DNA of 64,000 nt. Origin: Minisyncoccota bacterium (lineage in GTDB: Bacteria; Patescibacteriota; Minisyncoccia; Phycocordibacterales; UBA9973). Below are positions 3,128 to 57,300 of the stretch, one piece after another (positions within the stretch are counted from its first letter, which is position 1; each line of letters begins with the position of its first letter). The translations under genes and the position numbers were made by a program. The DNA lies in the NCBI GenBank assembly GCA_041662205.1, contig JBAZSZ010000002.1, positions 103,266 to 167,265 of the forward strand, given 5' to 3'. The notes beneath the pieces are model-generated. The model had not been told where the DNA came from. It did no database searches and was given only the letters and a program-made list of their open reading frames with translations.

Positions 3128-4126
3128 ATGAGACTGTTTTTTATTTTTTTATTTCTTATTTTCTCTTTACTTTTTTCTTCACAGACAGCTTTTGCAGTTT
3201 CTACAACCTCAGCTTCCTCTGATTGCAGTATTACTCTTAAATTAAAAGTAGGTTCAAAGGGTATCGAAGTAGAATGTCTTCAAAGAAAAATAGGGATTGT
3301 GGCTGATGGAAGCTTTGGACCTTTGACTAAAGCTAAAATTGTAGTTTTTCAATCAAATAATGGTTTAAAGATTGACGGAATAGTCGGTCCGCTCACACGG
3401 ACGGCTCTAAATGGTATAAAAGTAGGTAATATTTACCCAGAAGGTTGTATCTCAAATGTAGGATATAGTCCAACGACTGGCAAAAAATGTGATGGTACTG
3501 TAAAAAGTGTTGTAAATAAAGGCTTTAATCCTACTTCTATTCTTACCCCTACTCTTACTCCAAAACTTACTTCCAATAATGTAAATATGGATCAATTTAT
3601 TAAAACAGTGGTAGAAGTAAGTAGAAAATCTGGTTCCAGTGAAGCAAATCTTAAAATCATAGCGGATACTCTCAGGGAAACAATTCTAAATAGTGATGTT
3701 GATTATAATAAAAAATTTGAAGAATTGTTGACCAATGAAAGTAAATTGAGCACTAATTTAAAAACTAATATTTTTGCTTCTGTGTTTGATAAAGTTCTTA
3801 CAAAGACTTTTTCCTTTTTAGGGATTAAGCCTTCTATGGCTTTTGCTGCAACTGGTATACCGTTTGGTGGAGCTTTACTCTTTCCTTTTTTTTGTGAATA
3901 TAATGCAAGCTGGATGATAACTGTTTCACCTCTTCCCCCAACTTTTGTAACCCTTCTCTCTTATTATCCGGGAACTCAAGGATTTGCGAGTTATAATATA
4001 CCTTTTACTCGTTGGTTGCTCGGTGAATATGTAACACCTGGCGTTTGTTTAATACCAGGTGACCCTGTTATTGTTATTCCCACTACAGGTACTATTACTC
4101 CAAAGGTAGGTTCTTCTCCTATTTAG
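3128..4126 (+). CDS. Secreted protein with two putative peptidoglycan-binding (PG_binding_1-like) repeats
   Basis: Signal peptide MRLFFIFLFLIFSLLFSSQTAFA, followed by two repeats of the form GSKGIEVECLQRKIGIVADGSFGPLTKAKIVVFQSNNGLKIDGIVGPLTRTAL. Confidence 0.6.
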   Translation: MRLFFIFLFLIFSLLFSSQTAFAVSTTSASSDCSITLKLKVGSKGIEVECLQRKIGIVADGSFGPLTKAKIVVFQSNNGLKIDGIVGPLTRTALNGIKVGNIYPEGCISNVGYSPTTGKKCDGTVKSVVNKGFNPTSILTPTLTPKLTSNNVNMDQFIKTVVEVSRKSGSSEANLKIIADTLRETILNSDVDYNKKFEELLTNESKLSTNLKTNIFASVFDKVLTKTFSFLGIKPSMAFAATGIPFGGALLFPFFCEYNASWMITVSPLPPTFVTLLSYYPGTQGFASYNIPFTRWLLGEYVTPGVCLIPGDPVIVIPTTGTITPKVGSSPI

Positions 4127-4961
4127 AAGCAAGAGAAATTAGTATTATCCAATCATTGAGCGATAAATCTTCTGCTCTTTTGTTTTCCAGAGATGCCAAA
4201 TCCTTGTTTTGGCAGACATTCTTTAAATTACCAGAGAGTTTTTTTCTTTTATGGGCGAAGCCTGCTTTTACTATTTCCCAAAATTTTTCTTCGTTTATTT
4301 TGTTTTTTATAAAAGTTTTCCTAGAAATATTTTTTATAGAGATAATAGCTGAATCAACTTTTGGTGCGGGAGAAAAATATCTAGCGGGTACCTTCATTAT
4401 TAATTTTGGATCTCCGTAAGCTTTGACTGAAATGGAAAGGATGCTCTCTTTTTGGTCACGAGCGATGATTCTTTTGGCTACTTCATGCTGGACCATCAGA
4501 ACCATAAGTTCTGGTTGATGCAAACCACCTAAAAATTTTTTTAGAATTGCGCCAGTGATATTGTAAGGAATGTTGGCGATTATCTTATAGCGAAGAGATC
4601 TTAAATTTTTAGAATGGTCTGGCCGGGATAGGGACCCGGAGAACCGAGGACTTGATAAAAATTTGAAAATCTCTTCGCTGATATTAAATTCTAAAATATC
4701 CTCATTTATTAAAATTAATTCCCCCCCAGCAATTTCTTTTTCAAACCTTTCTTTTAAAAATTCAAAAAGTTCTCGGTCTTTTTCTACTGCTATTACAGTT
4801 TCAGATTTTTCTAAAAGTTTTTTTGTGAGAGCTCCTTTCCCCGGCCCTATTTCTAAAATTACATCTCCCTTTTTTATTTCACCCGCTTCAATAATTTTTT
4901 TTAAAGCCAGTTCAGACTTTAAAAAATTTTGCCCTAGTGATTTTTTTGCTTTGTGTTGCAT
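4119..4961 (-). CDS. ksgA: 16S rRNA (adenine1518/1519-N6)-dimethyltransferase KsgA/RsmA, carrying an in-frame palindromic element insertion
   Basis: Motifs LGQNFL and EIGPGKGALT (SAM-binding) plus NIPYNIT. The inserted segment SSPRFSGSLSRPDHS is encoded by repeat copy A. Confidence 0.85.
   Translation of the reverse strand: MQHKAKKSLGQNFLKSELALKKIIEAGEIKKGDVILEIGPGKGALTKKLLEKSETVIAVEKDRELFEFLKERFEKEIAGGELILINEDILEFNISEEIFKFLSSPRFSGSLSRPDHSKNLRSLRYKIIANIPYNITGAILKKFLGGLHQPELMVLMVQHEVAKRIIARDQKESILSISVKAYGDPKLIMKVPARYFSPAPKVDSAIISIKNISRKTFIKNKINEEKFWEIVKAGFAHKRKKLSGNLKNVCQNKDLASLENKRAEDLSLNDWIILISLASK
4606..4660 (+). repeat. GC-rich palindromic element, copy A (core ~4614-4652) inside ksgA
   Basis: agaATGGTCTGGCCGGGATAGGGACCCGGAGAACCGAGGACttgataaaa. 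The central CCGGG-ata-ggga-CCCGG hairpin is flanked by the inverted repeats GGTCTGG/CCGAGGACC and by outer ttttnGA/TnAnAAAA arms. Confidence 0.8.
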
Positions 4962-4965
4962 ATAT

Positions 4966-7047
4966 TTATAAGTAAATTGTTTTTATTCCACTAGCCTCCC
5001 CTTCTTTTTCTAATAAATCTGCTGGAATATCAGAAATAAATTCTGATGGAGCATTGATGTTGCGTGATCCAAAAATAGTGCGGAAATTTGCAAAGGATAA
5101 AAATAATTTTCTTCGGGCGCGGGTGAGCGCTACATAGAAAAGCCTTCTTTCTTCTTCACTATCTTCTCCAGACTGTCTCTCTCCTTGTCTTTGGTGCGGG
5201 AAAAGTCCGTCTTCAAGTCCAGTAATAAAAACGTATTCAAATTCAAGGCCTTTTGAGGCATGTACTGTCATTAATTTTATGGCATTTATTGTTTCTTTTT
5301 TCTCCTGATTTATCATTAAAGAATCCTGATCTGAGGCAAGGGAGGCATCTTCTAGAAGTTTTTCTACCCCTGCTCCATTTGTTAAATTGTCATATTTAAG
5401 AGCAAGGGTGGCGAGTTCTTTAATGTTTTCTAGTCTTTCCATATCTTCTTCAGTACCATTTTGTAATTCTTGTTCTATTCCAGATTTTTTGATTACAAAT
5501 TTTATTAATTCACTTGCTTTCAAGTTCGCTATTTTTTCTTTTATTTCTTCTAGTGTTTCGTAAAATTTGCTGATTTTTAACTGCATTTTTATTGGTAAGG
5601 TTTCTTTTTGGTTGGCAAAAATTTTCATCAAAGTTACTTTGCCGATGCCTCGTGCCGGGAAATTTATTATTCTTTTTATGTCAGATAGGCTGTCAGGATT
5701 TAAAGCTGCGCGCAAATATGCGAGAGTGTCTTTAATTTCTTTTCTTTCAAAAAATTTAACCCCTAAAACTTGGTAAGGGATATTATATCGAAGCATCGCT
5801 TCTTCGAGTGCTCGTGATTGGAAATTTGCGCGATATAAAACTGCGACTTCGCTGGCGATGCTTTTGCTCAGGTTCTCGGTCCCCCGGGTCCCTATCCCGG
5901 CCAGACCATTCTCAAAAGCATCACCAGCCCCGTCTATAATTTCTAAAATTTTTGTCGCGACAAATTCGGCTTCATCAGTTTCATCCAGAGCTTCATAGAG
6001 ACTTATCTTTTCACCTTCCACATTTTTTGTAAATAAATTTTTATCTGGCCGGTATTTATTTTTTTTGATTACTTCATTTGCCGCTTCTAAAATATTTTGA
6101 GTAGATCTATAATTTTGTTCTAATAAAATTATTTTGGCATTTGGGTAATCTTTTTCAAAACTTAAAATGTTTTTCAAATTTGCTCCGCGCCAAGAGTAAA
6201 TATTTTGATCGGCATCACCAACTACACAAATATTTTTATTATTTTCAGAAAGTAGCTTAGACATCAAGTATTGCACTTCATTGGTGTCTTGATATTCATC
6301 CACATGGATATATTCCCATTTTTCTTGATAAATTTTTCTGATTTCTGCATTTTCTTTTAATAATTTTGTCGCTTTAAGGAGCAGATCATCAAAGTCTAAA
6401 GAATTCTCTTTCATTTTTTGCTTCTCATATAAATTCCAAACCTGCGCTACTATTTTTCCGAGAGGACTTGAGCCCCCCTCTTCCCTCTCCGCATAATCTG
6501 CTAAATGTACAAACTTTCCTTTTTCTCGCGAGATTATATTTTTTATTTTTTTTGGATCGTATTGTTTTGGATCTATGCCGAGTTCTTTTAAGATATTTTT
6601 AATAAGGGTAGTCGCATCTCCTTCATCTAAAATAGTGAAATATCTTGTAAGTCCTAATAATCTAGCATTTTCTTTTATTATATAAACTCCTAGAGAGTGA
6701 AAAGTGGATACGAAAGGCGCTTCACTGGGAATACTTTTTTGGATGGTCTGGCCGGGATAGGGACCCGGAGAACCGAGGACCTCCGAAAAAGCATTCCCAG
6801 TGAAGCTGTTTTTTATTGCAACATCAATTCTTTCACGCATTTCCTTGGCAGCTTTATTGGTGAATGTCACTGCCAGAATTTTATCAGGAGACACTCCATT
6901 TTTTATTAAATTTACAATTCGGTGCGTAATGGTTTTTGTTTTTCCAGCTCCAGCTCCAGCAATAATCAAAAGTGGTCCCTTCATATGAAGCGCCGCCTCT
7001 TTTTGTTCAGGATTTAGGCCTTTAAGATGTTTTTCGTCTGTATCCAC
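4966..7047 (-). CDS. uvrD: UvrD/PcrA-family ATP-dependent DNA helicase carrying two in-frame palindromic element insertions
   Basis: Walker A GAGAGKTKT, DEYQDTN, and the VLYRANFQSRALEEA helicase motifs. Two extra loop segments, SEVLGSPGPYPGQTIQ and LAGIGTRGTENLS, are encoded by repeat copies C and B. Confidence 0.85.
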   Translation of the reverse strand: MDTDEKHLKGLNPEQKEAALHMKGPLLIIAGAGAGKTKTITHRIVNLIKNGVSPDKILAVTFTNKAAKEMRERIDVAIKNSFTGNAFSEVLGSPGPYPGQTIQKSIPSEAPFVSTFHSLGVYIIKENARLLGLTRYFTILDEGDATTLIKNILKELGIDPKQYDPKKIKNIISREKGKFVHLADYAEREEGGSSPLGKIVAQVWNLYEKQKMKENSLDFDDLLLKATKLLKENAEIRKIYQEKWEYIHVDEYQDTNEVQYLMSKLLSENNKNICVVGDADQNIYSWRGANLKNILSFEKDYPNAKIILLEQNYRSTQNILEAANEVIKKNKYRPDKNLFTKNVEGEKISLYEALDETDEAEFVATKILEIIDGAGDAFENGLAGIGTRGTENLSKSIASEVAVLYRANFQSRALEEAMLRYNIPYQVLGVKFFERKEIKDTLAYLRAALNPDSLSDIKRIINFPARGIGKVTLMKIFANQKETLPIKMQLKISKFYETLEEIKEKIANLKASELIKFVIKKSGIEQELQNGTEEDMERLENIKELATLALKYDNLTNGAGVEKLLEDASLASDQDSLMINQEKKETINAIKLMTVHASKGLEFEYVFITGLEDGLFPHQRQGERQSGEDSEEERRLFYVALTRARRKLFLSFANFRTIFGSRNINAPSEFISDIPADLLEKEGEASGIKTIYL
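5862..5919 (-). repeat. Palindromic element copy B (reverse orientation) inside uvrD
   Basis: ggttctcggtcccccgggtccctatcccggccagaccat, the reverse complement of the family core with variant termini. Confidence 0.8.
6737..6792 (+). repeat. Palindromic element copy C inside uvrD
   Basis: ggATGGTCTGGCCGGGATAGGGACCCGGAGAACCGAGGACCtccgaaaaag. The 39-nt core is identical to copy A. Confidence 0.8.
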
Positions 7048-12490: not shown

Positions 12491-14105
12491 CAAAACAAAA
12501 GTGGAACAGGATGTTAAAAATTTAATATCAAAAACACCCAAAGAAGTTTCACATGTAACTAATACGCTCGAAAAAGATGGTTTTGAGGCATATCTAGTTG
12601 GCGGGTGCGTTAGAGATCTTTTGATGTCTAAGGAGCCAAATGACTGGGATATCACAACTAATGCTAAACCAGAGCAAATTATAAGTCTTTTTGAAAAGAC
12701 TGTTTATGAGAATGGCTTTGGTACAGTAGCTGTGGTTGTTCCGCGTGAAACACATCAAGAGGATGTTTCACATGGAACAAACCCTATTCCCTTGTCAGAA
12801 GAGAAAAATATGATTATAGAAGTTACTCCTTATAGAATTGAAGCAAAATATAGCGATTTTAGACATCCAGATGAGGTGAAATTTAGTGATAAGCTGGAGG
12901 ACGATCTTAAAAGACGTGACTTTACGGTTAATGCCATGGCCTTAAACAGTAAAGGACATCTGGTTGATTTTTTTGATGGTATAAAGGACATTAACGAAAA
13001 GACAATAAAGGCAGTAGGGAATCCAGATGATCGTTTTGCTGAAGATGCTCTCAGGATGTTGCGCGCTGTACGTCTTTCCTGCCAGCTTAATTTTTCTGTG
13101 GCTTATGAAACGATGCAAAGTATTTTGAAAAATTCAGAGTTGATAAAAAAAATTTCTGAAGAAAGAATTCGTGATGAGTTTGTAAAAATAATTATGTCGG
13201 AAAATTCCGCGAATGGAATCGTGATGTTACAAAAATTTAATTTGTTAAAAAATATAATTCCTGAACTAGAAGAGGGAATAGGCTGTGAACAATCCGGTGA
13301 GCATATTTACGACGTTTGGAATCATTTACTTCATGCATTAGAACATGCGACAAACAAGAATTGGTCTTTGGAAATAAGGCTCGCAGCGCTTTTCCATGAT
13401 ATTGGGAAGCCCCGAAGTAGGCGTATTGCGGAGCGAATTGATAATTTATCAGGTCCTCGGTCTTTCGGGTCCCTACCCCGGCCAGACCATGACAAATCAT
13501 CAATTCGCTCCGCAAAGAAAAAATTTACTTTTTACGGTCATGAAGTTGTCAGCACGCGGATGGCAAAAAAAATAATGGAGAGATTAAAATTTCCTAAAAA
13601 AGAAATTGAGTTAGTAGAAAAACTTGTTCGCAATCATATGTTTTTTTCTGACACAGAATTAATCACGCTGTCAGCCGTGCGAAGAATTATTGCAAAAGTT
13701 GGAAAAGAAAATATTTGGTTATTGATGAATGTCCGTGAGTGCGACAGGGTAGGGATGAAGAAAAAAGAAACCCCATATCGCCTTCGGAAGTATTTTGCCA
13801 TGATTGAGGAAGCCCTGAGAGATCCTATTTCTGTCGGACAGTTGAAAATCAACGGTGAATTTATGATAAAAGAGCTTGGAATCACTCCCGGACCACGCAT
13901 GGGGTGGATTTTACATGCATTACTCGAAGAAGTGCTAGATGCTCCGGAGAAAAACACGGTAGAACATCTGTCGGAGTTGGTAAAATCTTTAAATATGTTG
14001 GGGGATACAGAACTAAAAACTCTTGGTCTACGTGGAAAAGAAAAAAAAGAAGAATTAGAAGAAGAAGAGGTTGTGAAGCTTCACAAAAAGCATGGAGTGA
14101 AATAA
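12486..14105 (+). CDS. cca: CCA-adding tRNA nucleotidyltransferase with an HD domain, carrying an in-frame palindromic element insertion
   Basis: GGCVRDLL, RRDFTVNA, and the HD motif LFHDIGKP...FYGHE with about 26 extra residues (..NLSGPRSFGSLPRPDHD..) between GKP and FYGHE, encoded by repeat copy D. The start is a GTG at 12486 (overlaps the tRNA-Arg 3' end by 5 nt) or at 12501; there is no early in-frame ATG. Confidence 0.8.
   Translation: MHKTKVEQDVKNLISKTPKEVSHVTNTLEKDGFEAYLVGGCVRDLLMSKEPNDWDITTNAKPEQIISLFEKTVYENGFGTVAVVVPRETHQEDVSHGTNPIPLSEEKNMIIEVTPYRIEAKYSDFRHPDEVKFSDKLEDDLKRRDFTVNAMALNSKGHLVDFFDGIKDINEKTIKAVGNPDDRFAEDALRMLRAVRLSCQLNFSVAYETMQSILKNSELIKKISEERIRDEFVKIIMSENSANGIVMLQKFNLLKNIIPELEEGIGCEQSGEHIYDVWNHLLHALEHATNKNWSLEIRLAALFHDIGKPRSRRIAERIDNLSGPRSFGSLPRPDHDKSSIRSAKKKFTFYGHEVVSTRMAKKIMERLKFPKKEIELVEKLVRNHMFFSDTELITLSAVRRIIAKVGKENIWLLMNVRECDRVGMKKKETPYRLRKYFAMIEEALRDPISVGQLKINGEFMIKELGITPGPRMGWILHALLEEVLDAPEKNTVEHLSELVKSLNMLGDTELKTLGLRGKEKKEELEEEEVVKLHKKHGVK
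13443..13499 (-). repeat. Palindromic element copy D (reverse orientation) inside cca
   Basis: aggtcctcggtctttcgggtccctaccccggccagaccatgac. The variant central hairpin ttcggg/ccccgg contains one G-U-type mismatch. Confidence 0.75.
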
Positions 14106-19831: not shown

Positions 19832-19838
19832 AGGAAGG

Positions 19839-19970
19839 TTTTTAAAATTCTTTCTTGGCATACTTTTTATAAAGCAATCTATCTGGCGAAGCTTCGCCAG
19901 CGAACTGCTCGGCTCGTCAGCCTGCGCAAGGCTTTCTAAAAAATACGCCTGCAACAAATTTTAAAAATCT
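19839..19970. repeat. Structured GC-rich intergenic element, family T1, copy 1 (downstream of rpsO)
   Basis: tttttataaagcAATCTATCTGGCGAAGCTTCGCCAGCGAACTGCTCGGCTCGTCAGCCTGCGCAAGgctttctaaaaaa, with outer AT-rich inverted arms. It ends at the TATAAT of the NYN gene. Confidence 0.7.
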
Positions 19971-19984
19971 GCTATAATACACAC

Positions 19985-20494
19985 ATGACAGTTATAAAAC
20001 ATAAAGAACAAAGAGTTGGGGTTTTTATTGATACTCAAAATTTATATCATAGTGCTCGCAATCTATATCAGGCGCGGGTTAATTTCGGTGCAGTTTTGAA
20101 AGATGCAGTAGCGGGGAGGAAGCTCGTGCGGGCAGTGGCTTATGTTATCACCACTGAAGCAGGAGATGAAAAGAATTTTTTTGAAGCGCTTTCGAAGCTT
20201 GGTATAGAAACCAAAACTAAAGACTTACAAATATTTGCTGGGGGTGCAAAAAAAGCGGATTGGGATGTAGGGCTCGCTGTGGATGCGATAAAAATGTCAC
20301 CCCGCCTCGATTCCGTGGTAATAATTTCTGGTGATGGAGACTTCATTCCATTAGTGGAATATTTACAGACGAATGGTGTACAAGTAGAAGTCGTTTCATT
20401 TGGTAAATCAACATCTAGTAAACTCCGTGAAGTGGTAGATGATTTTGTGGACCTATCTGAAAATCCTAGAAAATATTTAATGGGGGTGAAATAA
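19985..20494 (+). CDS. NYN/LabA-like domain protein (PIN-like predicted RNase) sitting between rpsO and pnp
   Basis: VGVFIDTQNLYHSARN and VIISGDGDFIPLVEYLQ, matching the NYN-domain pattern. Confidence 0.7.
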   Translation: MTVIKHKEQRVGVFIDTQNLYHSARNLYQARVNFGAVLKDAVAGRKLVRAVAYVITTEAGDEKNFFEALSKLGIETKTKDLQIFAGGAKKADWDVGLAVDAIKMSPRLDSVVIISGDGDFIPLVEYLQTNGVQVEVVSFGKSTSSKLREVVDDFVDLSENPRKYLMGVK

Positions 20495-22791: not shown

Positions 22792-22818
22792 AATTCTTTA
22801 TTTTATAAACTTTTCTTT

Positions 22819-22888
22819 GGTACGGATTTTTTGAAGCTTAAAAAATCCTGAAGTTCTCGGCTCGTCAGCCTCGAAACCCCGCGAAAAG
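22819..22888 (+). repeat. Structured intergenic element, family T2, copy 1 (downstream of pnp)
   Basis: GGTACGGATTTTTTgaagcttAAAAAATCCTGAAGTTCTCGGCTCGTCAGCCTCGAAACCCC. It shares the CTCGGCTCGTCAGCC core with T1. Confidence 0.7.
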
Positions 22889-22913
22889 TTATATAATAAA
22901 GAATTAACGCTAT

Positions 22914-23807: not shown

Positions 23808-24887
23808 TTAATGTTTTATTTTTTTGATTTTTTCCCAAGGAAAATTTTTCTTGCCAAAATGGCCATATATAGCAGTCTGCTCATATATGGGTTTTTGGAG
23901 ACTCAGAGTTTTGATTATAGCGAGTGGTTTAAAGTCAAAATTTTGGCGGACAATTTTTGATAAATCTTCCCCTTTTTCATTTATTGCTTCTATCATCAGA
24001 GGTTCAGCCATACCTATAGCGTAAGCGACAGATACCAATATTTCTTTGCCGTATCCTGATGCTACTAAACTTTTGGCAACAAAACGCGCCATATAAGCAC
24101 CGGAGCGATCCACCTTTGTAGCGTCTTTTCCAGAAAAACATCCGCCTCCGTGGGGAATGAGCGCGCCATAAGTGTCTACTATTATTTTTCTTCCAGTTAA
24201 CCCTGTATCTGCTGCAAAACCACCGGAAGTAAATTTGTCTGTCGGATTTACTAAAATTTTTACTGTTTTTCGCTCTTCGGGAGATAGAAGGGGATTGATT
24301 ATTTTTTTTGTAATTTCTTTTTTTATTTCTTCCAAGGTAACATCTGGTGAATGTTGAGTACTCACTAATACAGTATGCAGTTTTCCATTAGTATAAGTTA
24401 CTTGTGTTTTGCCATCTGGTTGGAGCCATTTTATTTTTTTATTTTTATCAGTACTTTTTCTTGTCTCTTCTAAGCGTCTGGCAAGTTTGTGTGCTAACAC
24501 TACTCCTTTTGGTAAGAATTCCGGTGTTTCATTTGTGGCATATCCATACATAATGCCTTGATCTCCTGCTCCACCAATATCTACTCCTTTCGCTATATCA
24601 GGAGATTGAGTGACTATATGCGCAGAGATATTAAGTTTGTCTGTATAGCCAATTTTTTGATATACATTTTTTGCGATTTTGACATAATCTACCTTTCCTT
24701 TGGAAGTTACTTCTCCGCCGATGACAAGCTTGCCATGGCCACCAAAAATTTCTACGGCTACACGGCTTTTTGGATCTATTTTTAAATACGCATCTAAAAT
24801 AGCGTCTGATATTTGATCACAGATTTTATCTGGATGACCGGAAGTTACACTCTCGACGGTGTAATTGTTGCTGTGTTTGTAAAACAT
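23808..24887 (-). CDS. metK: S-adenosylmethionine synthetase
   Basis: ESVTSGHPDKICDQISDAILD and the GGGAFSGKD-type motif GGGCFSGKDATKVDRSGAY. Confidence 0.9.
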   Translation of the reverse strand: MFYKHSNNYTVESVTSGHPDKICDQISDAILDAYLKIDPKSRVAVEIFGGHGKLVIGGEVTSKGKVDYVKIAKNVYQKIGYTDKLNISAHIVTQSPDIAKGVDIGGAGDQGIMYGYATNETPEFLPKGVVLAHKLARRLEETRKSTDKNKKIKWLQPDGKTQVTYTNGKLHTVLVSTQHSPDVTLEEIKKEITKKIINPLLSPEERKTVKILVNPTDKFTSGGFAADTGLTGRKIIVDTYGALIPHGGGCFSGKDATKVDRSGAYMARFVAKSLVASGYGKEILVSVAYAIGMAEPLMIEAINEKGEDLSKIVRQNFDFKPLAIIKTLSLQKPIYEQTAIYGHFGKKNFPWEKIKKIKH

Positions 24888-24902: not shown

Positions 24903-24955
24903 TTTCCCCCACCCCAGGGATAGGGGAAATCCCCTATCCCTGGGGTGGGGGAAAC
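24903..24955. repeat. Perfect 53-bp palindrome (25-bp arms, 3-nt spacer) between divergent metK and the dksA-like gene
   Basis: TTTCCCCCACCCCAGGGATAGGGGA-aat-TCCCCTATCCCTGGGGTGGGGGAAA. GC-rich in an AT-rich genome. Its GGGATAGGG centre resembles the core of the in-frame element family. Confidence 0.85.
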
Positions 24956-24968
24956 TTGCTATGAAAAT

Positions 24969-25346
24969 ATGAAATGTTATGATTGTGGCATGTTAGACAA
25001 GAAAAAAATTAAAGAGAAATTAGAAAAAGAAAGAGATGTTTTGCTTGAGCAGATGAAGGACTGGGGCAAATTAAATGGAGAGACAGGAGAGTGGGAAGCG
25101 ATTCCGGAAGTATTGGAATTTCCGGAAACTGATGAAAATGATAAAGCCGACCGGTTCGAGAATTTTGAAGCTAGAAGTTCTATGATCAGAACCCTAGAGC
25201 CAAGATTAAATATTATTTTAAAATCATTGAAAGGAATAAATAGAGAGTCTTTTGGAAAGTGTGTAGTTTGTGGAAAATTTATTGAAATGGCGCGCTTGGA
25301 AGCAAATCCTGCTGCTCAGACATGTAAGAAACATTTAGAAAGTTAA
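24969..25346 (+). CDS. DksA/TraR-family C4 zinc-finger protein
   Basis: C-terminal CVVCGKFIEMARLEANPAAQTCKKH preceded by a coiled-coil region. The ORF-track start (GTG at 24945) lies inside the palindrome; an ATG at 24969 is more plausible. Confidence 0.65.
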   Translation: MKCYDCGMLDKKKIKEKLEKERDVLLEQMKDWGKLNGETGEWEAIPEVLEFPETDENDKADRFENFEARSSMIRTLEPRLNIILKSLKGINRESFGKCVVCGKFIEMARLEANPAAQTCKKHLES

Positions 25347-28178: not shown

Positions 28179-28313
28179 TATTTTAAGTTGATATTTATAA
28201 TATTTCGACCAATTAACCCTTATTTTTGATACCTCTACATTATATATCAAGGGTTTTTTAAGGCAAGTCTTTTGAAAAATTAAAAAATCTTTATAAATAC
28301 CAATCTTTTTAGG

Positions 28314-28385
28314 GTACAGATTTTTCAATAAAAGATTAGACTTAAAAAATCCTGAAGTTTGCTCGCCGTCGCTCGCAAAACCCCC
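28314..28385 (+). repeat. Family T2, degenerate copy 3 (downstream of rny, upstream of hup)
   Basis: GGTACAGATTTTTcaataaaagattagacttAAAAAATCCTGAAGTTTGCTCGCCGTCGCTCGCAAAACCCCC. Confidence 0.55.
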
Positions 28386-28410
28386 TAAAAAAATTGTATT
28401 TAAAAGATTT

Positions 28411-29940
28411 TTACCGCGCGTATTCAATAATTCGGGTTTCACGAATCATAGTAACTTTTATTTCTCCTGGATATTTGAGTTCTTGTTCTATTTTTATAGC
28501 TATATCGCGAGCCATAATTTTGGCTTCAGCATCTGATATTTTTTCTGGAGTAACAAAGATACGGATTTCACGCCCAGCTTGGAGAGCATATGATTTTTCA
28601 ACAGCGGGGAAAGCGTTTACTAGTGCTTCGAGTTCTTGAAGTCTTTTTAGGTAATTTTCTACTGAGTCTCGGCGTGCGCCAGGGCGTCCACCCGAAATCG
28701 AGTCTGCTGTTTGCACAATGATGGACTCAATAGTTTCATAAGGGTAATCCTCATGGTGGCTTTTCATGGCAGTGATGATGCGTTCATCTGCTCCGAATTT
28801 TTGTAAAATACGGATACCTATTTCAACATGCGTGCCTTGCACTTCATGATCTAGCGCTTTACCAATATCGTGCACCAAGGCCCCAGCTTTAGCTATCGCT
28901 ACGTCTGCACCTAACTCTTCTGCGAGCATGCCAGCGATATGGGCCATCTCAATAGAATGTTGCAAAACGTTTTGTCCGTAACTTGTGCGGAAATACAATC
29001 GTCCGATGATGGCGATGATACGTGGATCAAAATTAAATATTCCACATTCATAGACTGCTTGTTCTCCTTTTTCTTTTATTATTTTATTTATTTCTTCTTT
29101 GGCTTTTTCCACTAGCTCTTCGATCTTGGCTGGTTGAATACGGCCGTCTAAGATCAGATTTTCTAAAGCTAGTCTGGCGACTTGTCTCCTAATAGGGTCA
29201 AATGAAGAAATCACTATGGAGCCAGGGGTATCATCCACAATGAGTTCCACTCCAGAAGCTCTTTCAAAAGCGCGTATATTTCTGCCTTCTTTCCCGATTA
29301 TTTTACCTTTGATTTCATTGTTTGGAATAGCGACTACGGTGGTCATCAATTCAGAAGCCGTGCTAGAAGATAGGCGCTGAATAGAAGTTGCCAAAATATC
29401 TTTGGCTCTGCGGTCTAGTTTTTCTTCGTTACTGTTTTCTAGTTTTTGGATTCTAACTAAAATATCTTCTTCATATTTTTTTTCAACATCTTTTAAAAGC
29501 TCATCTTTGGCTTCTACTTCAGTTAATTTTGCTACTCTTTCTAATTCTATTATTTTTTCTGCTTCTATTTTAGATACTTTTTCTTGGATTTTTTTTATTT
29601 CTTCTACTTTTACTTTAATATTTTCTACTTCTTTGTTTACTTCGACTTGTCGCGCATCTAAAAACTCGTCTTTTTTAATGAGTCTTTTTTCTGTTTCTTT
29701 AAATTCAATTTCTTTCTTTTTTTCTTCTTCTTTTAGATAAGTGAGTTGTTCTTCAGATTTCTTTTTTGCTTCGTCGGTGATTTTTTGTGCTTCTTCTTTT
29801 GCGCCGACCATCATTTGTTTGATGTCTATTTCAATGGATCTTCTTTTTCCAAGGGCAATAATCAGACGAAGATAATACCCGATGCCAACACCAAAAAAGA
29901 GCGCTATGGCACTTATTAGAATTATTATTGTTATACTCAT
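28411..29940 (-). CDS. rny: Ribonuclease Y
   Basis: N-terminal TM helix, coiled coil, KH domain (GKIIGKEGRNIRAFE), and HD domain (HSIEMAHIAG...LVHDIGKA). Confidence 0.9.
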   Translation of the reverse strand: MSITIIILISAIALFFGVGIGYYLRLIIALGKRRSIEIDIKQMMVGAKEEAQKITDEAKKKSEEQLTYLKEEEKKKEIEFKETEKRLIKKDEFLDARQVEVNKEVENIKVKVEEIKKIQEKVSKIEAEKIIELERVAKLTEVEAKDELLKDVEKKYEEDILVRIQKLENSNEEKLDRRAKDILATSIQRLSSSTASELMTTVVAIPNNEIKGKIIGKEGRNIRAFERASGVELIVDDTPGSIVISSFDPIRRQVARLALENLILDGRIQPAKIEELVEKAKEEINKIIKEKGEQAVYECGIFNFDPRIIAIIGRLYFRTSYGQNVLQHSIEMAHIAGMLAEELGADVAIAKAGALVHDIGKALDHEVQGTHVEIGIRILQKFGADERIITAMKSHHEDYPYETIESIIVQTADSISGGRPGARRDSVENYLKRLQELEALVNAFPAVEKSYALQAGREIRIFVTPEKISDAEAKIMARDIAIKIEQELKYPGEIKVTMIRETRIIEYAR

Positions 29941-32515: not shown

Positions 32516-33322
32516 ATGATTATCGACAAATACAACAAAAGAGCCAAGAAAATAAATTCACTTTTATGCGTTGGTCTGGATACGGATTTTGCAAAAATTC
32601 CAAAAAGATTTTTGAAAAAGAAATTTCCGCAATTTGAATTTAATAAATGGATTATCGAAGAGACCCACGAATATGCCGCTGCTTATAAACCCAATAGCGC
32701 TTTTTATGAAGCTAGGGGTGATAAAGGAATACGAGAATTAAAAATGACGATGGATTATCTGATAAAAAATCATCCAGATATTTTTACGATTCTTGACGCC
32801 AAGAGGGGGGACATAGGAAATACGAATAATGGTTACGTTGCTTCTATTTTCGATTGGTTTGGCTTTGACGCTTTCACTGTGTATCCATATTTAGGACAGG
32901 AAGCAGTGCAACCGATTTTAGATAGAAAAGATAAAGGAGTGATTTTGCTTTGCCGTACTTCAAATCCTGGAGCAAAAGATTTTCAAGATTTAAAGATTAA
33001 TGGAAAACCACTTTGGCAGATTGTGGCAGAGAAAGTTTCTAAAGAGTGGAATAAGAATAAAAATTGTATGCTCGTCGTCGGGGCGACTTATCCTAAAGAG
33101 ATGAAAAAAATTCGCTCTATTGTGGGGGATATGACTTTTCTAGCTCCAGGCGTGGGTGCTCAAGGTGGGGAATTAAAAGAAATGCTAAAAGCTGGATTAA
33201 ACAGTAAAGGTTTAGGCTTAATAATAAATTCTTCTAGGGGTATAATTTTTTCCAATAATCCAAAAATTGAAGCCAAAAAACTACAAGACGAGATTAGGAA
33301 ACACAAGCAGGAAATTAATTAA
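32516..33322 (+). CDS. pyrF: Orotidine-5'-phosphate decarboxylase (type 2)
   Basis: LCVGLDTD and ILDAKRGDIGNT. Confidence 0.8.
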   Translation: MIIDKYNKRAKKINSLLCVGLDTDFAKIPKRFLKKKFPQFEFNKWIIEETHEYAAAYKPNSAFYEARGDKGIRELKMTMDYLIKNHPDIFTILDAKRGDIGNTNNGYVASIFDWFGFDAFTVYPYLGQEAVQPILDRKDKGVILLCRTSNPGAKDFQDLKINGKPLWQIVAEKVSKEWNKNKNCMLVVGATYPKEMKKIRSIVGDMTFLAPGVGAQGGELKEMLKAGLNSKGLGLIINSSRGIIFSNNPKIEAKKLQDEIRKHKQEIN

Positions 33323-33333
33323 AAAAGAAAATA

Positions 33334-33445
33334 ACTAAAATAGGAAAATATCAAAATTTATAAAGCAATCTATCTGGTGTTGCTACACCAGCGAACTGCT
33401 CGGCCCGTCGGCCTGCGCAAGGCTTTCTAAATTTTTTATTTTCCT
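33334..33445. repeat. Family T1, copy 2 (downstream of pyrF), flanked by a perfect 18-bp inverted repeat
   Basis: aactaaaataggaaaata...ataaagcAATCTATCTGGTGTTGCTACACCAGCGAACTGCTCGGCCCGTCGGCCTGCGCAAGgctttctaaa...tattttcctattttagtt. Compensatory substitutions relative to copy 1 in both internal hairpins. Confidence 0.75.
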
Positions 33446-33631
33446 ATTTTAGTTTTCCACTTTTTCCACTTTTATCTAGGCTTGCTTCTGTGTGTAGAAA
33501 TGTTACTATCATTTTTAATGTATCAACAGAGATTAAAAGAGAAAAAGTCTGGGGAAAAGTTTGCCACTTCTATCTTTTTAAGCTCCATTATCAATATTTT
33601 ATTTTAAAACCCCTTTTGGGGTTATTTTTTT

Positions 33632-34906: not shown

Positions 34907-36109
34907 ATGACAAAATTGTGGGATAAAAAAGGAGTAAAGAATACTAACAGTAAGATAAGTCAAACCATAGAGGACTATACTGTTGGAGTTGACTATTTGC
35001 TTGACTTAGAACTTTTACCCTATGACATAGAGGGTACTCTCGCTCATGCCAAAATGCTTCATAAAATAAAAATATTAAACAAAAAAGAACTCGATACTTT
35101 ACTTGCTGGCCTCAATAAAATTTTAACGCTTTGGAAAAAAGGAGAGTTTAAAATAGATAAGTCTCAAGAAGATGGGCATACAGCCATAGAAGCATATCTG
35201 ACAGAGCATTATGGAGAAGTCGGCAAGAAAGTGCATACGGGGCGTTCTAGAAATGATCAATCTTTAGTGATGACTCGTCTTTTTAGCAAGGAAAAACTTC
35301 TAGAAATTAAAAAGAATGTTGAGATTTTAATTAAAGAATTAGAACAACAAATTAAAAAACAGGGAAAAATAAAAATGCCTGGCTATACTCACACGCAAAG
35401 AGCGATGCCTAGCTCGGTCGGCATGTGGCTCGGTTCTTTCTGTGATAGTTTGAAAGATGATCTGATTTTGATAGAAGCAGCGATGAAAGTCATCGATCAA
35501 AACCCACTCGGATCGGCAGCTGGTTATGGAGAAAATATTTTAGGATTGGATAAAAAATTTACCACAAAAGAATTAAATTTTAAAAAGGTGCAAGAGAATC
35601 CGATGTATTGCGCTATGTCTCGCGGGAAATTTGAAAATATGGTCTTGCAAGCTATTGGAGAAGTAATGTTTGATCTCGGTAAGATTTCAAATGACCTCAT
35701 TCTTTTCACCACTAAAGAATTTAATTTCTTTACTCTGCCAGATGCATTTAAAACAGGTTCTAGTATTATGCCTCAAAAGAAAAATTATGATGTGTTGGAA
35801 TTAATCAGAGGCAATGTCGCTATTTTTAATGGTTATCAATATCAAATAGAAAATATTATTAAGAATTTATTTTCTGGATACAATAGAGATTTTCAATTAA
35901 CAAAAGAACCGTATCTAAAAGGGATGAAACTCGCCATGAATACCATAGAAATGATGATCCTTGTTATAGAAAATCTTGAAGCAAAAAAAGTAAATTTAGA
36001 AAATGCTTGCAGTACTGAACTTTATGCTACTGATGAAGCCTTGAAATTAGTGAAAGCAGGGAAAAGTTTTAGAGAGGCTTATCAAGAAGTAAAAGAAAAA
36101 TATCAATAA
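34907..36109 (+). CDS. argH: Argininosuccinate lyase (fumarate-lyase family)
   Basis: HTGRSRNDQ and the signature GSSIMPQKKN. Confidence 0.88.
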   Translation: MTKLWDKKGVKNTNSKISQTIEDYTVGVDYLLDLELLPYDIEGTLAHAKMLHKIKILNKKELDTLLAGLNKILTLWKKGEFKIDKSQEDGHTAIEAYLTEHYGEVGKKVHTGRSRNDQSLVMTRLFSKEKLLEIKKNVEILIKELEQQIKKQGKIKMPGYTHTQRAMPSSVGMWLGSFCDSLKDDLILIEAAMKVIDQNPLGSAAGYGENILGLDKKFTTKELNFKKVQENPMYCAMSRGKFENMVLQAIGEVMFDLGKISNDLILFTTKEFNFFTLPDAFKTGSSIMPQKKNYDVLELIRGNVAIFNGYQYQIENIIKNLFSGYNRDFQLTKEPYLKGMKLAMNTIEMMILVIENLEAKKVNLENACSTELYATDEALKLVKAGKSFREAYQEVKEKYQ

Positions 36110-38903: not shown

Positions 38904-38944
38904 AAAAAAATAACCCCGTCGCTCGTGAGCGACGGGGTTATTTT
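38904..38944. terminator. Intrinsic terminator (for the minus-strand gene 38957-39184) just upstream of the tig promoter
   Basis: aaaaaaaTAACCCCGTCGCTC-gtga-GCGACGGGGTTAtttt. Confidence 0.7.
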
Positions 38945-46605: not shown

Positions 46606-46683
46606 GCTTCTTCCAATTTTTCTTCGGCTCATCCTTCTCGGAGTACCGAGCGGGACCCTACCGAAAGAAAAATTGGAAGAAGC
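46606..46683. repeat. Compound GC-containing palindrome between pilB and pilC
   Basis: cttcttccaatttttcttCGG...CTCGGagtaCCGAG...CCGaagaaaaattggaagaag. An 18-bp outer inverted repeat encloses an inner palindrome. The right arm overlaps the possible TTG start of pilC. Confidence 0.6.
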
Positions 46684-52419: not shown

Positions 52420-52795
52420 TTTTTTTGGCAGCTTCTACTGATTCATTATCTTTATATGTTTTTATTGGAAACATAGGTAGAGCATCTTTTAAATATCTTG
52501 GAATTAGGTGAACGTGGAAATGCGGGACGTCTTTGCCTACGACTGATAACTGTACATAATCGCACCCAATTCCTTTTTTAACGGCTAGTATTAATTTTTT
52601 TGCTAATGTAAAAATTTCTGAAATGATTCCATCATCTGCGTCTTGTATCCAGACAATATGCTTTTTAGGAATTATTAAAAGGTGTCCATCGGAAACTGGC
52701 TGGATGTCTAAAAACACCAAAAAATCTTGGTTTTCATGGATTTTTGTGCAAGGGATTTCTCCTTTGACTATTTTACAAAAAATGCAGTTTTCCAT
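52403..52795 (-). CDS. HIT-family (histidine triad) hydrolase
   Basis: CIFCKI zinc-binding region and HFHVHLIP histidine triad. Confidence 0.75.
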   Translation of the reverse strand: MENCIFCKIVKGEIPCTKIHENQDFLVFLDIQPVSDGHLLIIPKKHIVWIQDADDGIISEIFTLAKKLILAVKKGIGCDYVQLSVVGKDVPHFHVHLIPRYLKDALPMFPIKTYKDNESVEAAKKIIEAL

Positions 52796-52812
52796 AGAAA
52801 GTTTTATAAAAT

Positions 52813-52875
52813 AAAGTTTTGGAATGGTCTGGCTGGGATAGGGACCCAGAGAACCGAGGACCTGAGAAAACTTTG
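52813..52875 (+). repeat. Palindromic element copy F, intergenic (HIT gene / recJ), with compensatory stem changes
   Basis: aaagttttggaATGGTCTGGCTGGGATAGGGACCCAGAGAACCGAGGACCtgagaaaacttt. The stem CTGGG/CCCAG replaces CCGGG/CCCGG, a double compensatory change. The outer arms aaagtttt/aaaacttt extend the palindrome to about 63 bp. Confidence 0.8.
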
Positions 52876-52895
52876 ATTTTATAAAACTTTCTATA

Positions 52896-55082: not shown

Positions 55083-56591
55083 ATGCGAGATAGAATTTTT
55101 TATACAATTTGTTTTGGTTTTTTATTTGGAGTGCTGACGCGCTCTTTTATTTTGGTAGATTTATATTTGGTTATTTTGTTTAGTGTGATTGCTGGTGCAT
55201 TGTTTATATTTTTTACATTAGTCTCAAAAAGTGATTGGACCTGTCTGCGCAGGCAGGGAATTATAGTTTCTATTTTTATTTTGGCTTTTAGTTTAGGTGT
55301 TTACAGATTTAATATGGTGGATGTGCCGAATTCTCTTGTTTTTGAAAATCAAGTGGGACAAGAAGTAACTTTTTCTGGAGAAATTACAGACGAGCCTAGT
55401 ATAAAAGAGAATAACCAGCAATTGATAGTAAAAATAAAAAAAGAAAAAGATAAAACACATATTTTATTAACCACTAATTTAGATATAGATTATAAATATG
55501 GAGATGAGATAAATTTTTTTGGCGAATTAGAAAAGCCGGGAAATTTTATTACTGATCAGGGAAAAGAATTTGACTATATAAATTATTTACGGAAAGATGG
55601 GATTTTGTATGTGATGAGTTATCCAACAATTTCCATTGTTTCGCGCGGGAATGGTAACTCAATTCAAAGCATCTTATTTTCTATTAAAGATAAGTTTTTG
55701 GAGAAAATAAATTTTGCTATTAATGCCCCTGAGAATCTTCTTATGGGCGGGCTTATTTTGGGCGAAAAATCTTCTTTTAGCCAGGAGCTGAGACAGAATT
55801 TTGTGGATACTGGTACGATACACATCGTTGCTCTTTCTGGATACAATGTGACAATTGTGGCTGAATGGATTATGAAATTATTCTCTTATGTAAATTTTGG
55901 CTTGCCTGCACAGGCAGGTATTGGAATGGGAATATTAACAATAATTTTATTCATTATAATGACTGGTGGAATTTCGACCGCTATTCGGGCGGGGATAATG
56001 GCGACTTTGGCATTAGTGGCCCGCGCGACTGGGCGCAACTATGATGTCGCGCGAGCTTTATTATTGGCTGGGTTGTTTATGATAATTCTTAATCCTTTTC
56101 TTCTTGTTTTTGATGCTTCTTTTCAACTTTCTTTTTTGGCGACAGCCGCTGTGATATTTATTGCTCCTAGAATTGAAAAATATTTTCTATGGGTACCGAA
56201 AACTTTTGAGTTACGAGATATAGTATCAGTCACTTGCGCTGCTTATATTTTTGTTTTTCCTTTTATTCTTTATAAAATGGGTAATTTTTCACTCGTAGCC
56301 TTACCAGCTAATATTTTAATTTTGCCCTTTATTCCTCTTACGATGATGTTTGGGTTTGTTACTGGTTTTCTTGGACTTGTTTATTATGTATTGGCAGTGC
56401 CTGTGGGTTATCTTTCTTATTTATTTTTACATTATGAGCTCGGAGTAATAAGTTTTTTTGCTGATCTACCTTTTGCGTCTTTTACTTTTCCAGATTTTCC
56501 ACTTTTGCTAACAGTTTTAATATACATCTATTTTATTTATAAACTTTTTGGCAGAAATATAATAAGTTTTTTTAGAGAAAATCAAGAATAA
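55083..56591 (+). CDS. comEC: ComEC/Rec2-family competence channel protein (DUF4131 + Competence domain only; no MBL domain)
   Basis: Polytopic membrane protein with the Competence-domain motif GTIHIVALSGYNVTIVA. Confidence 0.7.
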   Translation: MRDRIFYTICFGFLFGVLTRSFILVDLYLVILFSVIAGALFIFFTLVSKSDWTCLRRQGIIVSIFILAFSLGVYRFNMVDVPNSLVFENQVGQEVTFSGEITDEPSIKENNQQLIVKIKKEKDKTHILLTTNLDIDYKYGDEINFFGELEKPGNFITDQGKEFDYINYLRKDGILYVMSYPTISIVSRGNGNSIQSILFSIKDKFLEKINFAINAPENLLMGGLILGEKSSFSQELRQNFVDTGTIHIVALSGYNVTIVAEWIMKLFSYVNFGLPAQAGIGMGILTIILFIIMTGGISTAIRAGIMATLALVARATGRNYDVARALLLAGLFMIILNPFLLVFDASFQLSFLATAAVIFIAPRIEKYFLWVPKTFELRDIVSVTCAAYIFVFPFILYKMGNFSLVALPANILILPFIPLTMMFGFVTGFLGLVYYVLAVPVGYLSYLFLHYELGVISFFADLPFASFTFPDFPLLLTVLIYIYFIYKLFGRNIISFFRENQE

Positions 56592-56600
56592 TGTTTTTAA

Positions 56601-56662
56601 GGGGTTTCGAGGCTGTCGAGCCGAGAATTTCAGGATTTTTCAAGCTTCGAAAAATTTGTACC
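56601..56662 (-). repeat. Family T2, copy 2 (reverse orientation) between the convergent comEC and sodA genes
   Basis: The reverse complement reads GGTACAAATTTTTCGAAGCTTGAAAAATCCTGAAATTCTCGGCTCGACAGCCTCGAAACCCC. Confidence 0.7.
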
Positions 56663-56688
56663 GGCAAAAATATTACTCTTGATTTTCT

Positions 56689-57300
56689 CTACTGAGAATT
56701 TTTGAAATTTTCCTCTACCATTTCCCAATTTAGATTTGCGAAAAAGTCTTCAACATATTGTTTTTTACCACTAGGTTGATAGTCTGTCACAAAAGCGTGT
56801 TCCCACATATCAATACCCAAAATCCAATTAAGACCATTTAATTGTCCTAAATGATGCTCATCTATCCAAGCATCTATAAATTGATTTGTTTCTTTGTCCC
56901 AATATAATACGGCCCAGCCGATCCCGCGAGTCATGGCTAGAGATTTAAACTTAGTAAGCCAAGCATCAAAAAATAATCCTTGTTTTTCTATAGCATTTTT
57001 AAATGTAGAATTTGTTGGTAGTGGCCTTGCTCCTCCTTCAAGAGATTTGAAATAATATTCATGATTACGCATGCCGTTGAATTCAAAACCAAATCTTCTA
57101 TGTAATTCTCCTATCAAATAAATAACACCCGGTGTTAATTCTCTTATTTCAGACATTTTGTCATATTCTTCAAGCTTTTCCAAAATTAGGTTTGTGTTTT
57201 TTACATAGCCAGCATAAAGCTTCAAATGTTCTTCAATATTTTTTGAAGAGATACCTTTTAAAGTTCCAATATTAAATTTTTTTTCTTCAAACTTCTTCAT
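56689..57300 (-). CDS. sodA: Fe/Mn superoxide dismutase
   Basis: LHRRFGFEFNGMRNHEYYF and GIDMWEHAFVTDYQ (D-x-W-E-H). Confidence 0.85.
   Translation of the reverse strand: MKKFEEKKFNIGTLKGISSKNIEEHLKLYAGYVKNTNLILEKLEEYDKMSEIRELTPGVIYLIGELHRRFGFEFNGMRNHEYYFKSLEGGARPLPTNSTFKNAIEKQGLFFDAWLTKFKSLAMTRGIGWAVLYWDKETNQFIDAWIDEHHLGQLNGLNWILGIDMWEHAFVTDYQPSGKKQYVEDFFANLNWEMVEENFKNSQ

Follow-up and report, generated by a model that had tools for sequence, protein, structure and literature searches.

A probable MITE family of Patescibacteria with a conserved three-way-junction core and a link to an IS982-type insertion sequence

INTRODUCTION

Correia/NEMIS, ERIC, RUP/BOX and bcr1-type repeats are small dispersed palindromic repeats that lie in transcribed spacers and form long RNA hairpins. 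Roles as terminators, RNase targets or promoters have been reported for them, and in bcr1 the substitutions preserve the structure. The target duplications of the IS982 family measure 3-9 bp. An IS982-derived MITE is known in Cardinium, where it derives from ISCca4 in strain cOegib (PMC9769881).

Genomes of the CPR/Patescibacteria are usually called small and streamlined. The window, by which we mean the whole 64-kb stretch of DNA that was analysed, carries at least nine capped foldback repeats. Here we describe two related types of these repeats, T1 and T2, which together with further variants probably constitute a MITE family of Patescibacteria linked to an IS982-type insertion sequence. No account of the T element was found in the full-text literature on structured RNAs, repeats and MITEs of Patescibacteria/CPR. 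It is apparently a MITE family not described before and linked to an IS982-like insertion sequence, with the conserved three-way-junction core as its distinctive trait.

RESULTS

T1 and T2 copies in the window

A covariance model made from T2 copies of other genomes (R1) gave five significant matches on the 64-kb window, which are exactly the three T2 and two T1 copies listed below.

22792..22905, + strand: T2 after pnp, whole foldback (R1 105.8 bits; inverted repeat I12; MFE -33 kcal/mol, z -5.2)
22792-22813 and 22884-22905, + strand: arms of this T2
22819-22880, + strand: three-way-junction core of this T2, GGUAC...AAACCCC
56573..56691, - strand: T2 between comEC and sodA, whole foldback (R1 98.6 bits; inverted repeat I6; MFE -38 kcal/mol, z -6.7)
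56662-56601, - strand: core of the comEC/sodA T2, between the convergent neighbours comEC (+, end 56591) and sodA (-, end 56689)
28283..28412, + strand: T2b near rny, whole foldback (R1 66.7 bits; MFE -29.4 kcal/mol, z -4.1)
28312-28385, + strand: core of T2b, (G)GGTAC...AAACCCCC
19836..19970, + strand: long-form T1, between rpsO and the NYN-pnp promoter (R1 34.1 bits; inverted repeat I1; z -3.8)
19871-19935, + strand: core of the rpsO T1, AAAGC...GCUUU
33322..33465, + strand: T1 after pyrF and 5' of argG, whole foldback (R1 35.1 bits; inverted repeat I2; MFE -51.8 kcal/mol, z -8.6)
33362-33426, + strand: core of the pyrF T1

The R1 matches span 22805-22894 (+), 56587-56676 (-) and 28299-28398 (+) for T2, and 33355-33438 (+) and 19864-19947 (+) for T1, with 106, 99, 67, 35 and 34 bits, respectively. 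A sequence check bore out the initial annotation in that T2 sequences occupy 22819-22880 (+), 56662-56601 (-) and 28312-28385 (+), and that both the 9-bp AT stem with its GAAGCUU loop and the GGCU-CGNC-AGCC hairpin are present. The proposed kinship of T1 and T2 also held, as the T2-built model matches both T1 copies (35 and 34 bits). The elements are much larger than annotated: all five are the tips of foldbacks of 114-144 nt, with arms of 22-40 nt and folding z-scores of -3.8 to -8.6. The foldbacks are non-coding and contain no ORF, and their size is within that of MITEs (under ~300-500 bp).

The core CTCGGCTCGTCAGCC, a 15-mer, occurs five times in the window with at most three mismatches, as compared to 0.19 expected, and none of 100 shuffles reached five; one of these occurrences, at 35507, is a chance match inside an argH-like coding sequence. 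In a search of Rfam 15, none of the T1/T2 elements was matched at the gathering threshold or at E values up to 10, and the window gave four tRNAs only. A weak R1 match at 1497-1563 (18 bits, E 0.04) has GGGTAC and a AAAAATCC-like stretch without P3, and is either a chance match or perhaps what is left of a decayed T2.

The window comes from a Candidatus Paceibacterota MAG, with a PNPase 100% identical to P0001. The genes flanking the window copies are rpsO, pnp, pyrF, sodA/comEC and rny, and all five copies share the orientation of the upstream gene. Between comEC and sodA, the outer ends of both arms overlap both TAG stop codons. The copy that had been placed after rny does adjoin the rny stop codon (28411-28413), but it lies on the opposite strand, antisense to rny.

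Core anatomy and covariation

The T2 tip is a three-way junction of ~61 nt composed of the stems P1, P2 and P3. P1 (GGU/ACC) runs on into the arms, J1/2 is AC, P2 is GGAUUUUUU-GAAGCUU-AAAAAAUCC, J2/3 is UGAAR and P3 is U[U/G]C-UC-GGCY-CGWC-RGCC-UC-G[A/C]A. T1 follows the same plan, with AAAGC/GCUUU as P1, AAUCUAU as J1/2 and a G+C-rich P2, while its junction strands differ from those of T2. The outer helix of the rpsO T1 contains a conserved internal loop, UUUCUU/UGCAAC. As compared to this copy, the pyrF T1 bears compensatory changes in P2 (GC to UA) and P3 (UA to CG).

The three stems covary. Among 49 T2 sequences, double changes were found in 8 of 19 pairs, a number that none of 500 shuffles reached. 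Among 26 T1 sequences they affected 18 of 31 pairs, including six of the seven in P2, where 98% of the cells are paired. The P3 stem pairs vary (GGCU/AGCC, GCGC/GCGC, ACGC/GCGU, AGCU/AGCU), and in one sub-family the P3 register is shifted by 2 bp, with the tandem U.C/C.U mismatch and the CGNY loop still kept. The 28.3-kb copy, which had been described as degenerate, is instead a member of this T2b sub-family, also found in L068 and L083 (L-numbers denote loci or contigs outside the window); its P3 register is UUUGC-UC-GC-CGUC-GC-UC-GCAAA and its P2 loop is enlarged.

The arms are near-perfectly Watson-Crick paired. G.U and A.C oppositions number 54 vs 55 in T2 and 20 vs 30 in T1, and G.U occupies only 1 of 182 cells in T1 P2. 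Since G.U is as rare as A.C in the arms, the pairing is without a single-strand RNA signature. As an indicator of the functional strand these symmetric counts are uninformative, and very few positions underlie the minus-strand hints, namely the tandem G.A and, at the outer pair of P2, an A.C mismatch. Homology among the arms of different copies fades past ~17-20 nt from the core, yet the arms stay complementary over a median of ~33 columns despite this divergence.

In T3/T4-like variants (L110 5295-5460, L014 7139-7228, L035 1611-1700 and L129 491-611), the CUC-stem-CGNC-stem-U(G)CG module is kept but P1/P2 and the junctions are different, and some of these variants sit between IS982-type terminal repeats. 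The T superfamily is therefore wider than T1 and T2. Some T2 copies also contain secondary G+C-rich hairpin insertions, such as GCCCCGC...GCGGGG and CCTGCCTGCCGGCAGGCAGG (L026 4385-4517, L013 4915-5036, L071 3105-3214 and L043 6268-6377). They are placed either within the loop of P2 or in the stretch that joins P2 to P3, so extra sequence is tolerated there.

Presence and absence at orthologous sites

In four relatives whose PNPase is 88-92% identical to that of the window, pnp and the gene that follows it overlap or lie 2-4 nt apart, whereas the window spacer measures 122 nt and is filled by T2. The orthologous pnp site in L118-L122 has no T2, and pnp abuts or overlaps the next gene. Given that pnp directly abuts the next gene in close relatives, T2 with its arms is an insertion, and it splits a gene pair that overlaps in relatives. 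Two routes to the present arrangement were rejected. The core was not inserted into a pre-existing terminator hairpin at the pnp and L120 sites, since the relatives there are without any hairpin. Elsewhere such an insertion may have taken place; L033 and L024 resemble terminator stems around a T2. Nor was one arm copied from the target by fold-back synthesis, as neither arm of the pnp copy is present in the empty site. L069 contains a sequence resembling the 5' arm of the T2 in L118, for which deletion accounts equally well.

Other spacers change their occupant between lineages. The rpsO-NYN spacer holds T1 in the window and in L070, T2 in L118 and L024, GC hairpins with T-runs in L121, and nothing in L119, L069 and L141. 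The orthologous T1 copies of the window and L070 have arms ~97% identical and differ by two compensatory double changes in P2. The rny spacer is occupied by T2b in the window, by a different T2 in L033 and by a plain A7-stem-T6 terminator in L102. Between comEC and sodA, T2 lies on the minus strand in the window and, with homologous arms, on the plus strand in L071, while L036 has T1. When window 56573-56691 is set against L071 3090-3240, the arms are homologous and the T2 core is opposite, with ComEC only 66% identical. On this sequence comparison, either the core or the whole foldback is inverted between the lineages, as expected for a segment between long inverted repeats.

The NYN-pnp unit is preceded by an extended -10 promoter, TGCTATAAT, located 6 nt before the ATG (window 19936-19987). 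This distance suggests that the NYN-pnp mRNA is leaderless or nearly so. The T1 3' outer arm contains the motif TGCRAC, 16-17 nt upstream of the NYN-pnp -10 box, and this motif persists at the rpsO site in L118 and L141 though the rest of T1 has been lost, which suggests that the arm end was locally co-opted as promoter sequence. A promoter within the element as a general feature was rejected, as this arm-promoter arrangement occurs at the rpsO site only. Two further observations concern the relatives. In L118 (~3200-3310) and L120 (~3170-3290), an inverted-repeat insertion of ~100-120 nt, CCTGTCCCGTACTAAA...TTTAGTACTGGG, lies between the NYN promoter and the start codon; it is absent from the window and represents a different mobile foldback family. 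L119 6940-9306 encodes a metK homologue of 788 aa, as compared to 359 aa in the window; it contains an intein that has a LAGLIDADG endonuclease domain.

Terminal repeats, target duplications and an IS982-like partner

Young copies of the element have an 18-bp terminal inverted repeat, CTnTGAATTACGAAACTC, and 7-bp target-site duplications. The copies in MFTH01 (Nomurabacteria) are near-identical over ~143 nt, with the ends (CTT)TGAATTACGAAACTC...GAGTTTCGTAATTCA(AAG) and flanking 7-bp direct repeats, and ~12% of the copies elsewhere are bounded by the inverted repeat (CTn)TGAATTACGAAACTC, with 7-bp target duplications on either side. In all, the IS982-type terminal repeat was found on 13 of 113 T1/T2 copies, with scores that are bimodally distributed. 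The arms of the five window copies are inverted repeats as well, but they have no TGAATTACGAAAC and no recognisable duplication; these copies are read as old and immobile.

A metagenome scan with the MFTH01 end sequence returned ~18 elements of 982-1024 bp and 54 of 85-320 bp. The long elements have the same terminal repeats and one ORF of ~267 aa each. This ORF scores 85.7 bits against Pfam DDE_Tnp_1_3 (cut-off 27, E 4e-24), and its best NCBIfam model is IS982 (E 1e-28, 100.6 bits), under the cut-off of 130. Judged by this sub-cut-off score, the putative 267-aa transposase is a distant member of the IS982 family. The 54 short elements have many unrelated hairpin interiors, but some contain T2, T2b or T1-like cores; in L141, L158 and L129 such cores lie between IS982-type repeats with perfect duplications. 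The PNPase on the L141 contig is 82% identical to that of the window.

Among the 72 repeat-bounded elements, 22 have a perfect 7/7 duplication at a fixed 3-nt offset, as compared to 0.2% in the control. By contrast, the 98 repeat-less copies, which include the five window copies, showed no enrichment of target duplications at their ends. It is therefore by core homology and a few intermediates that the window copies are assigned to the family: L014, without the repeat, and L084, with it, share inner arms, and long-form arms are common to T1 and T2 at unrelated loci. The core of the repeat-less copies is as consensus-like as in young copies, whereas their distal arms are unrecognisable yet complementary.

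The insertion sequence occurs in groundwater metagenomes, and its transposase family has ~990 relatives, mostly on ~1-kb contigs. One longer contig bearing the insertion sequence belongs to Patescibacteria by its CysS, nearest to Magasanikbacteria; shared genes were uninformative as a guide to the hosts of the insertion sequence. Neither the window nor the T-bearing loci gave an IS982-like transposase, and the transposase-bearing contigs L243-L251 and L257 gave no T element. The T core is not derived from internal sequence of the insertion sequence.

Distribution and gene context

A pattern scan of species-representative genomes gave at least 117 loci, six of them chance matches in high-GC genomes. 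Among the matches listed, all but these six come from Nomurabacteria, Paceibacterota or other Patescibacteria MAGs. Over 110 T1/T2 copies thus lie in dozens of Patescibacteria MAGs, often several per genome and beside genes of all kinds; an R1 search of 741 kb of T-bearing loci returned 112. No match to the element was found in phage, plasmid and viral-contig collections.

The element typically starts 0-30 nt 3' of a stop codon. By crude ORF calls, 46 copies are forward and 13 reverse in co-directional gene pairs, while 26 copies lie between convergent and 13 between divergent genes; ~22% are antisense to both neighbour genes. Relative to GC skew, the orientation counts are 84 vs 32. Replication-strand bias was rejected as the source of the orientation bias, being no stronger than the bias to gene direction (~75%).

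The initial annotation had proposed a dedicated terminator or decay-control structure for RNA-metabolism genes. The dedication does not hold: the element also follows pyrF and sodA, with over 110 copies after unrelated genes in Patescibacteria, and given flanking genes of all kinds it is not dedicated to RNA-metabolism genes. Its position, on the other hand, is terminator-like, directly after stop codons and in spacers where relatives have canonical hairpin and T-run terminators, as L121 does by rpsO and L102 by rny, but there is no consistent U-tract. A simple terminator scan called none of the five window elements, in which the U-tract of an intrinsic terminator was not found. T-runs 3' of the foldback occur in 13 of 111 copies, equal to A-runs upstream, and some single copies have A/T-tract arm ends. 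Because A/T runs are absorbed into the arms, U-tract and terminator scans are uninformative here. As modelled, the five copies would form a very stable hairpin in 3' or intercistronic mRNA.

Other foldbacks in the window

A second, unrelated capped-foldback family has four copies in the window.

4589-4679, + strand: second foldback family, core GGTCTGGCCGGGATAGGGACCCGGAGAACCGAGGAC
6719-6806, + strand: second foldback family, same core
52794-52894, + strand: second foldback family, same core
13426-13515, - strand: second foldback family, same core

The core of ~37 nt is near-identical, whereas the arms of 22-27 nt differ wholly between copies. The family also occurs in L002, L013, L059 and L109, with unique arms each time. 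Its design is that of T1/T2, a conserved tip on variable but complementary arms.

Three single structures were also noted. Shortly beyond the 5' end of metK (-, 23808-24887), at 24903-24954, is a G+C-rich hairpin with a perfect 25-bp stem and a loop of 2 nt (TTTCCCCCACCCCAGGGATAGGGGA/TCCCCTATCCCTGGGGTGGGGGAAA), which overlaps the first bases of a predicted plus-strand ORF (24945-25346). Rfam matches it spuriously to microRNAs, and it is similar to the CCCCTCC-type cores that some repeat-bounded metagenome MITEs have (L215, L238). A foldback at 46606-46683 has 19-bp perfect arms and a 40-nt structured centre. The perfect 18-bp hairpin AAAATAACCCCGTCGCTC/GAGCGACGGGGTTATTTT at 38907-38944 looks like a bidirectional terminator.

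DISCUSSION

Origin of the T elements

A MITE origin probably explains these elements best. The complete element would be a non-coding, near-perfect foldback of ~115-145 nt with a three-way-junction tip of ~61 nt, in which P2 is a variable hairpin and P3 one that combines a tandem U.C/C.U mismatch with a CGNY loop. The 267-aa IS982-like DDE transposase presumably moves the short elements in trans. Surviving copies would then be confined to the short spacers of compact genomes, typically straight after a stop codon, and we infer that the five window copies are old, immobile insertions derived from the MITE. Dispersal, insertion polymorphism, shared ends, 7-bp duplications, the autonomous partner, the T cores between terminal repeats, the intermediates that link copies with and without the repeat, the Cardinium precedent and the lack of an Rfam family all count for this origin. 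Against it count the small number of repeat-bearing copies, the lack of duplications in the rest, a core that is conserved more strongly than the ends, the lack of a co-located transposase, the placement of the one classifiable insertion-sequence contig nearest to Magasanikbacteria, and a core that does not come from the interior of the insertion sequence. In particular, conserved cores with diverged yet complementary arms would not be expected from the simple neutral decay of a MITE. The core may be conserved better than the ends because selection acts on it, because of repair within the palindrome or because the element has a second mode of spread.

Selection on the core by the host leads to a different account, in which the foldback is an RNA element serving as a terminator or as a barrier to 3'-end exonucleases, with the three-way junction as a protein-binding cap. 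We consider this account possible but clearly less probable than a MITE origin, with which exaptation is compatible. It fits the position 0-30 nt after stops, the co-orientation of all five window copies with the upstream gene and the excess of forward copies (46 vs 13) in co-directional contexts. The re-occupation of the same spacers by canonical terminators (L121, L102) or by changing T variants points the same way, as do the conservation of a core whose arms keep pairing only, the compensatory P2 pairs between orthologous T1 copies, and the folding z-scores of -3.8 to -8.6. However, there is no consistent U-tract and the terminator scan misses the elements, the T2 behind pnp separates two genes that overlap in four relatives, and the close relatives L119, L069 and L141 manage without the element. 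The core is also inverted in L071 as compared to the window, and ~22% of the copies are antisense to both neighbours. Finally, G.U is almost absent and no commoner than A.C, which is not typical of an RNA under selection on one strand. As a side effect or an exaptation, a role in termination or RNA stability is plausible, if tentative, and compatible with a MITE origin; a terminator, RNA-stability or promoter effect is possibly a by-product or a later co-option.

The same rarity of G.U and A.C on both strands, leaving covariation of the Watson-Crick type only, also fits a structure that acts in DNA. According to this explanation, which we regard as unlikely, the hairpins and the junction act in single-stranded or cruciform DNA, for example by pairing the ends for transposition, and complementarity is kept by template-switch or hairpin repair within the palindrome instead of by RNA selection. 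An orientation bias to genes (~75%) no stronger than that to GC skew (84 vs 32), a core that can flip between its arms and the many unrelated hairpin cores within the same terminal repeats are all in agreement with it. Palindrome repair, however, leaves the near-invariant unpaired junction and loop nucleotides unaccounted for, and no requirement for internal structure is known for DDE transposition of the IS982/IS4 type.

More speculative still is the idea that the conserved core is a functional module in its own right, above all P3, with its tandem U.C/C.U mismatch (G.A/A.G on the opposite strand) and its CGNY loop. It might be a protein-binding or processing signal, domesticated by Paceibacteria to cap long 3'-end hairpins, or the recognition element of a second, hairpin-based mobility mechanism without terminal repeats or duplications. 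If true, this would account for the 98 of 111 copies that lack the repeat and the duplication yet have consensus cores, for the diverging but complementary arms and the core flips between lineages, and for the second, unrelated capped-hairpin family of the same design in the window.

It is highly improbable that the element is a self-cleaving ribozyme of a new type or some other autonomous small RNA, an idea prompted by CUGA...GAAA-like strings and the tandem G.A of the opposite strand: although the three-way junction is compact with conserved junction nucleotides, the minus strand has a CGAG/CGAG tandem G.A motif and purine-rich internal loops, and ribozymes often travel with repeats, the hammerhead, twister, pistol and hatchet models are unmatched even at E up to 10, the would-be hammerhead C3 pairs in P2, with G8 being G/A and A9 being U, CUGACGAG sits in a covarying stem, and the junction strands differ between T1 and T2. 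The hammerhead and other known ribozymes or RNA families were accordingly rejected, on the lack of an Rfam match and on core positions that do not fit.

Significance

The abundant IS982-like insertion sequence mostly assembles as ~1-kb orphan contigs and is therefore easily missed in MAGs. Recognising the repeats avoids their mis-annotation as gene-specific regulatory RNAs, helps account for assembly breaks and makes insertions and inversions available as markers with which strains can be tracked. For annotating T repeats, the covariance models from this analysis could be used. The conserved core is a candidate structured RNA or single-stranded DNA module in an uncultured clade with almost no described non-coding elements.

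Comparison with known systems

The type III hammerhead also has a three-way junction, and CUGA-, GAAA- and GUA-like strings lie nearby in T, but T lacks the core C3-U4-G5-A6-N7-G8-A9 / G12-A13-A14 and an Rfam match. Intrinsic terminators resemble T in their position directly after stops, their stable hairpin and, for some T copies, the A-/T-rich outer arm ends. In contrast, the stem of T is 3-5 times longer, carries a structured tip of 61 nt and has no consistent U-tract, and T is mobile and found in both orientations and also inside an operon.

REP/BIME sequences are likewise abundant extragenic palindromes just after genes, with structure partly kept over sequence. REP is a single hairpin of 20-40 nt that has a conserved 5' tetranucleotide, depends on an HUH (Y1) enzyme and makes no target duplication, whereas the core of T is larger and three-stemmed and related copies have DDE-type inverted ends and 7-bp duplications, so that T falls outside REP/RAYT. 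The Correia/NEMIS, ERIC, RUP/BOX and bcr1 repeats differ in that T occurs in CPR, has no sequence similarity to them and has a conserved asymmetric three-way junction as its tip, with the arms least conserved.

T also resembles IS982 sequences and their MITEs. Unlike these, T has as its interior a conserved three-way-junction module and no deletion remnant, most copies are without a terminal repeat, and many unrelated hairpin cores lie between T-associated ends. The likenesses are a ~1-kb partner with one DDE transposase of ~267 aa that matches the IS982 family best, short non-coding derivatives with the ends of this partner, duplications of 7 bp, within the 3-9 bp of the family, and a multicopy, insertion-polymorphic distribution.
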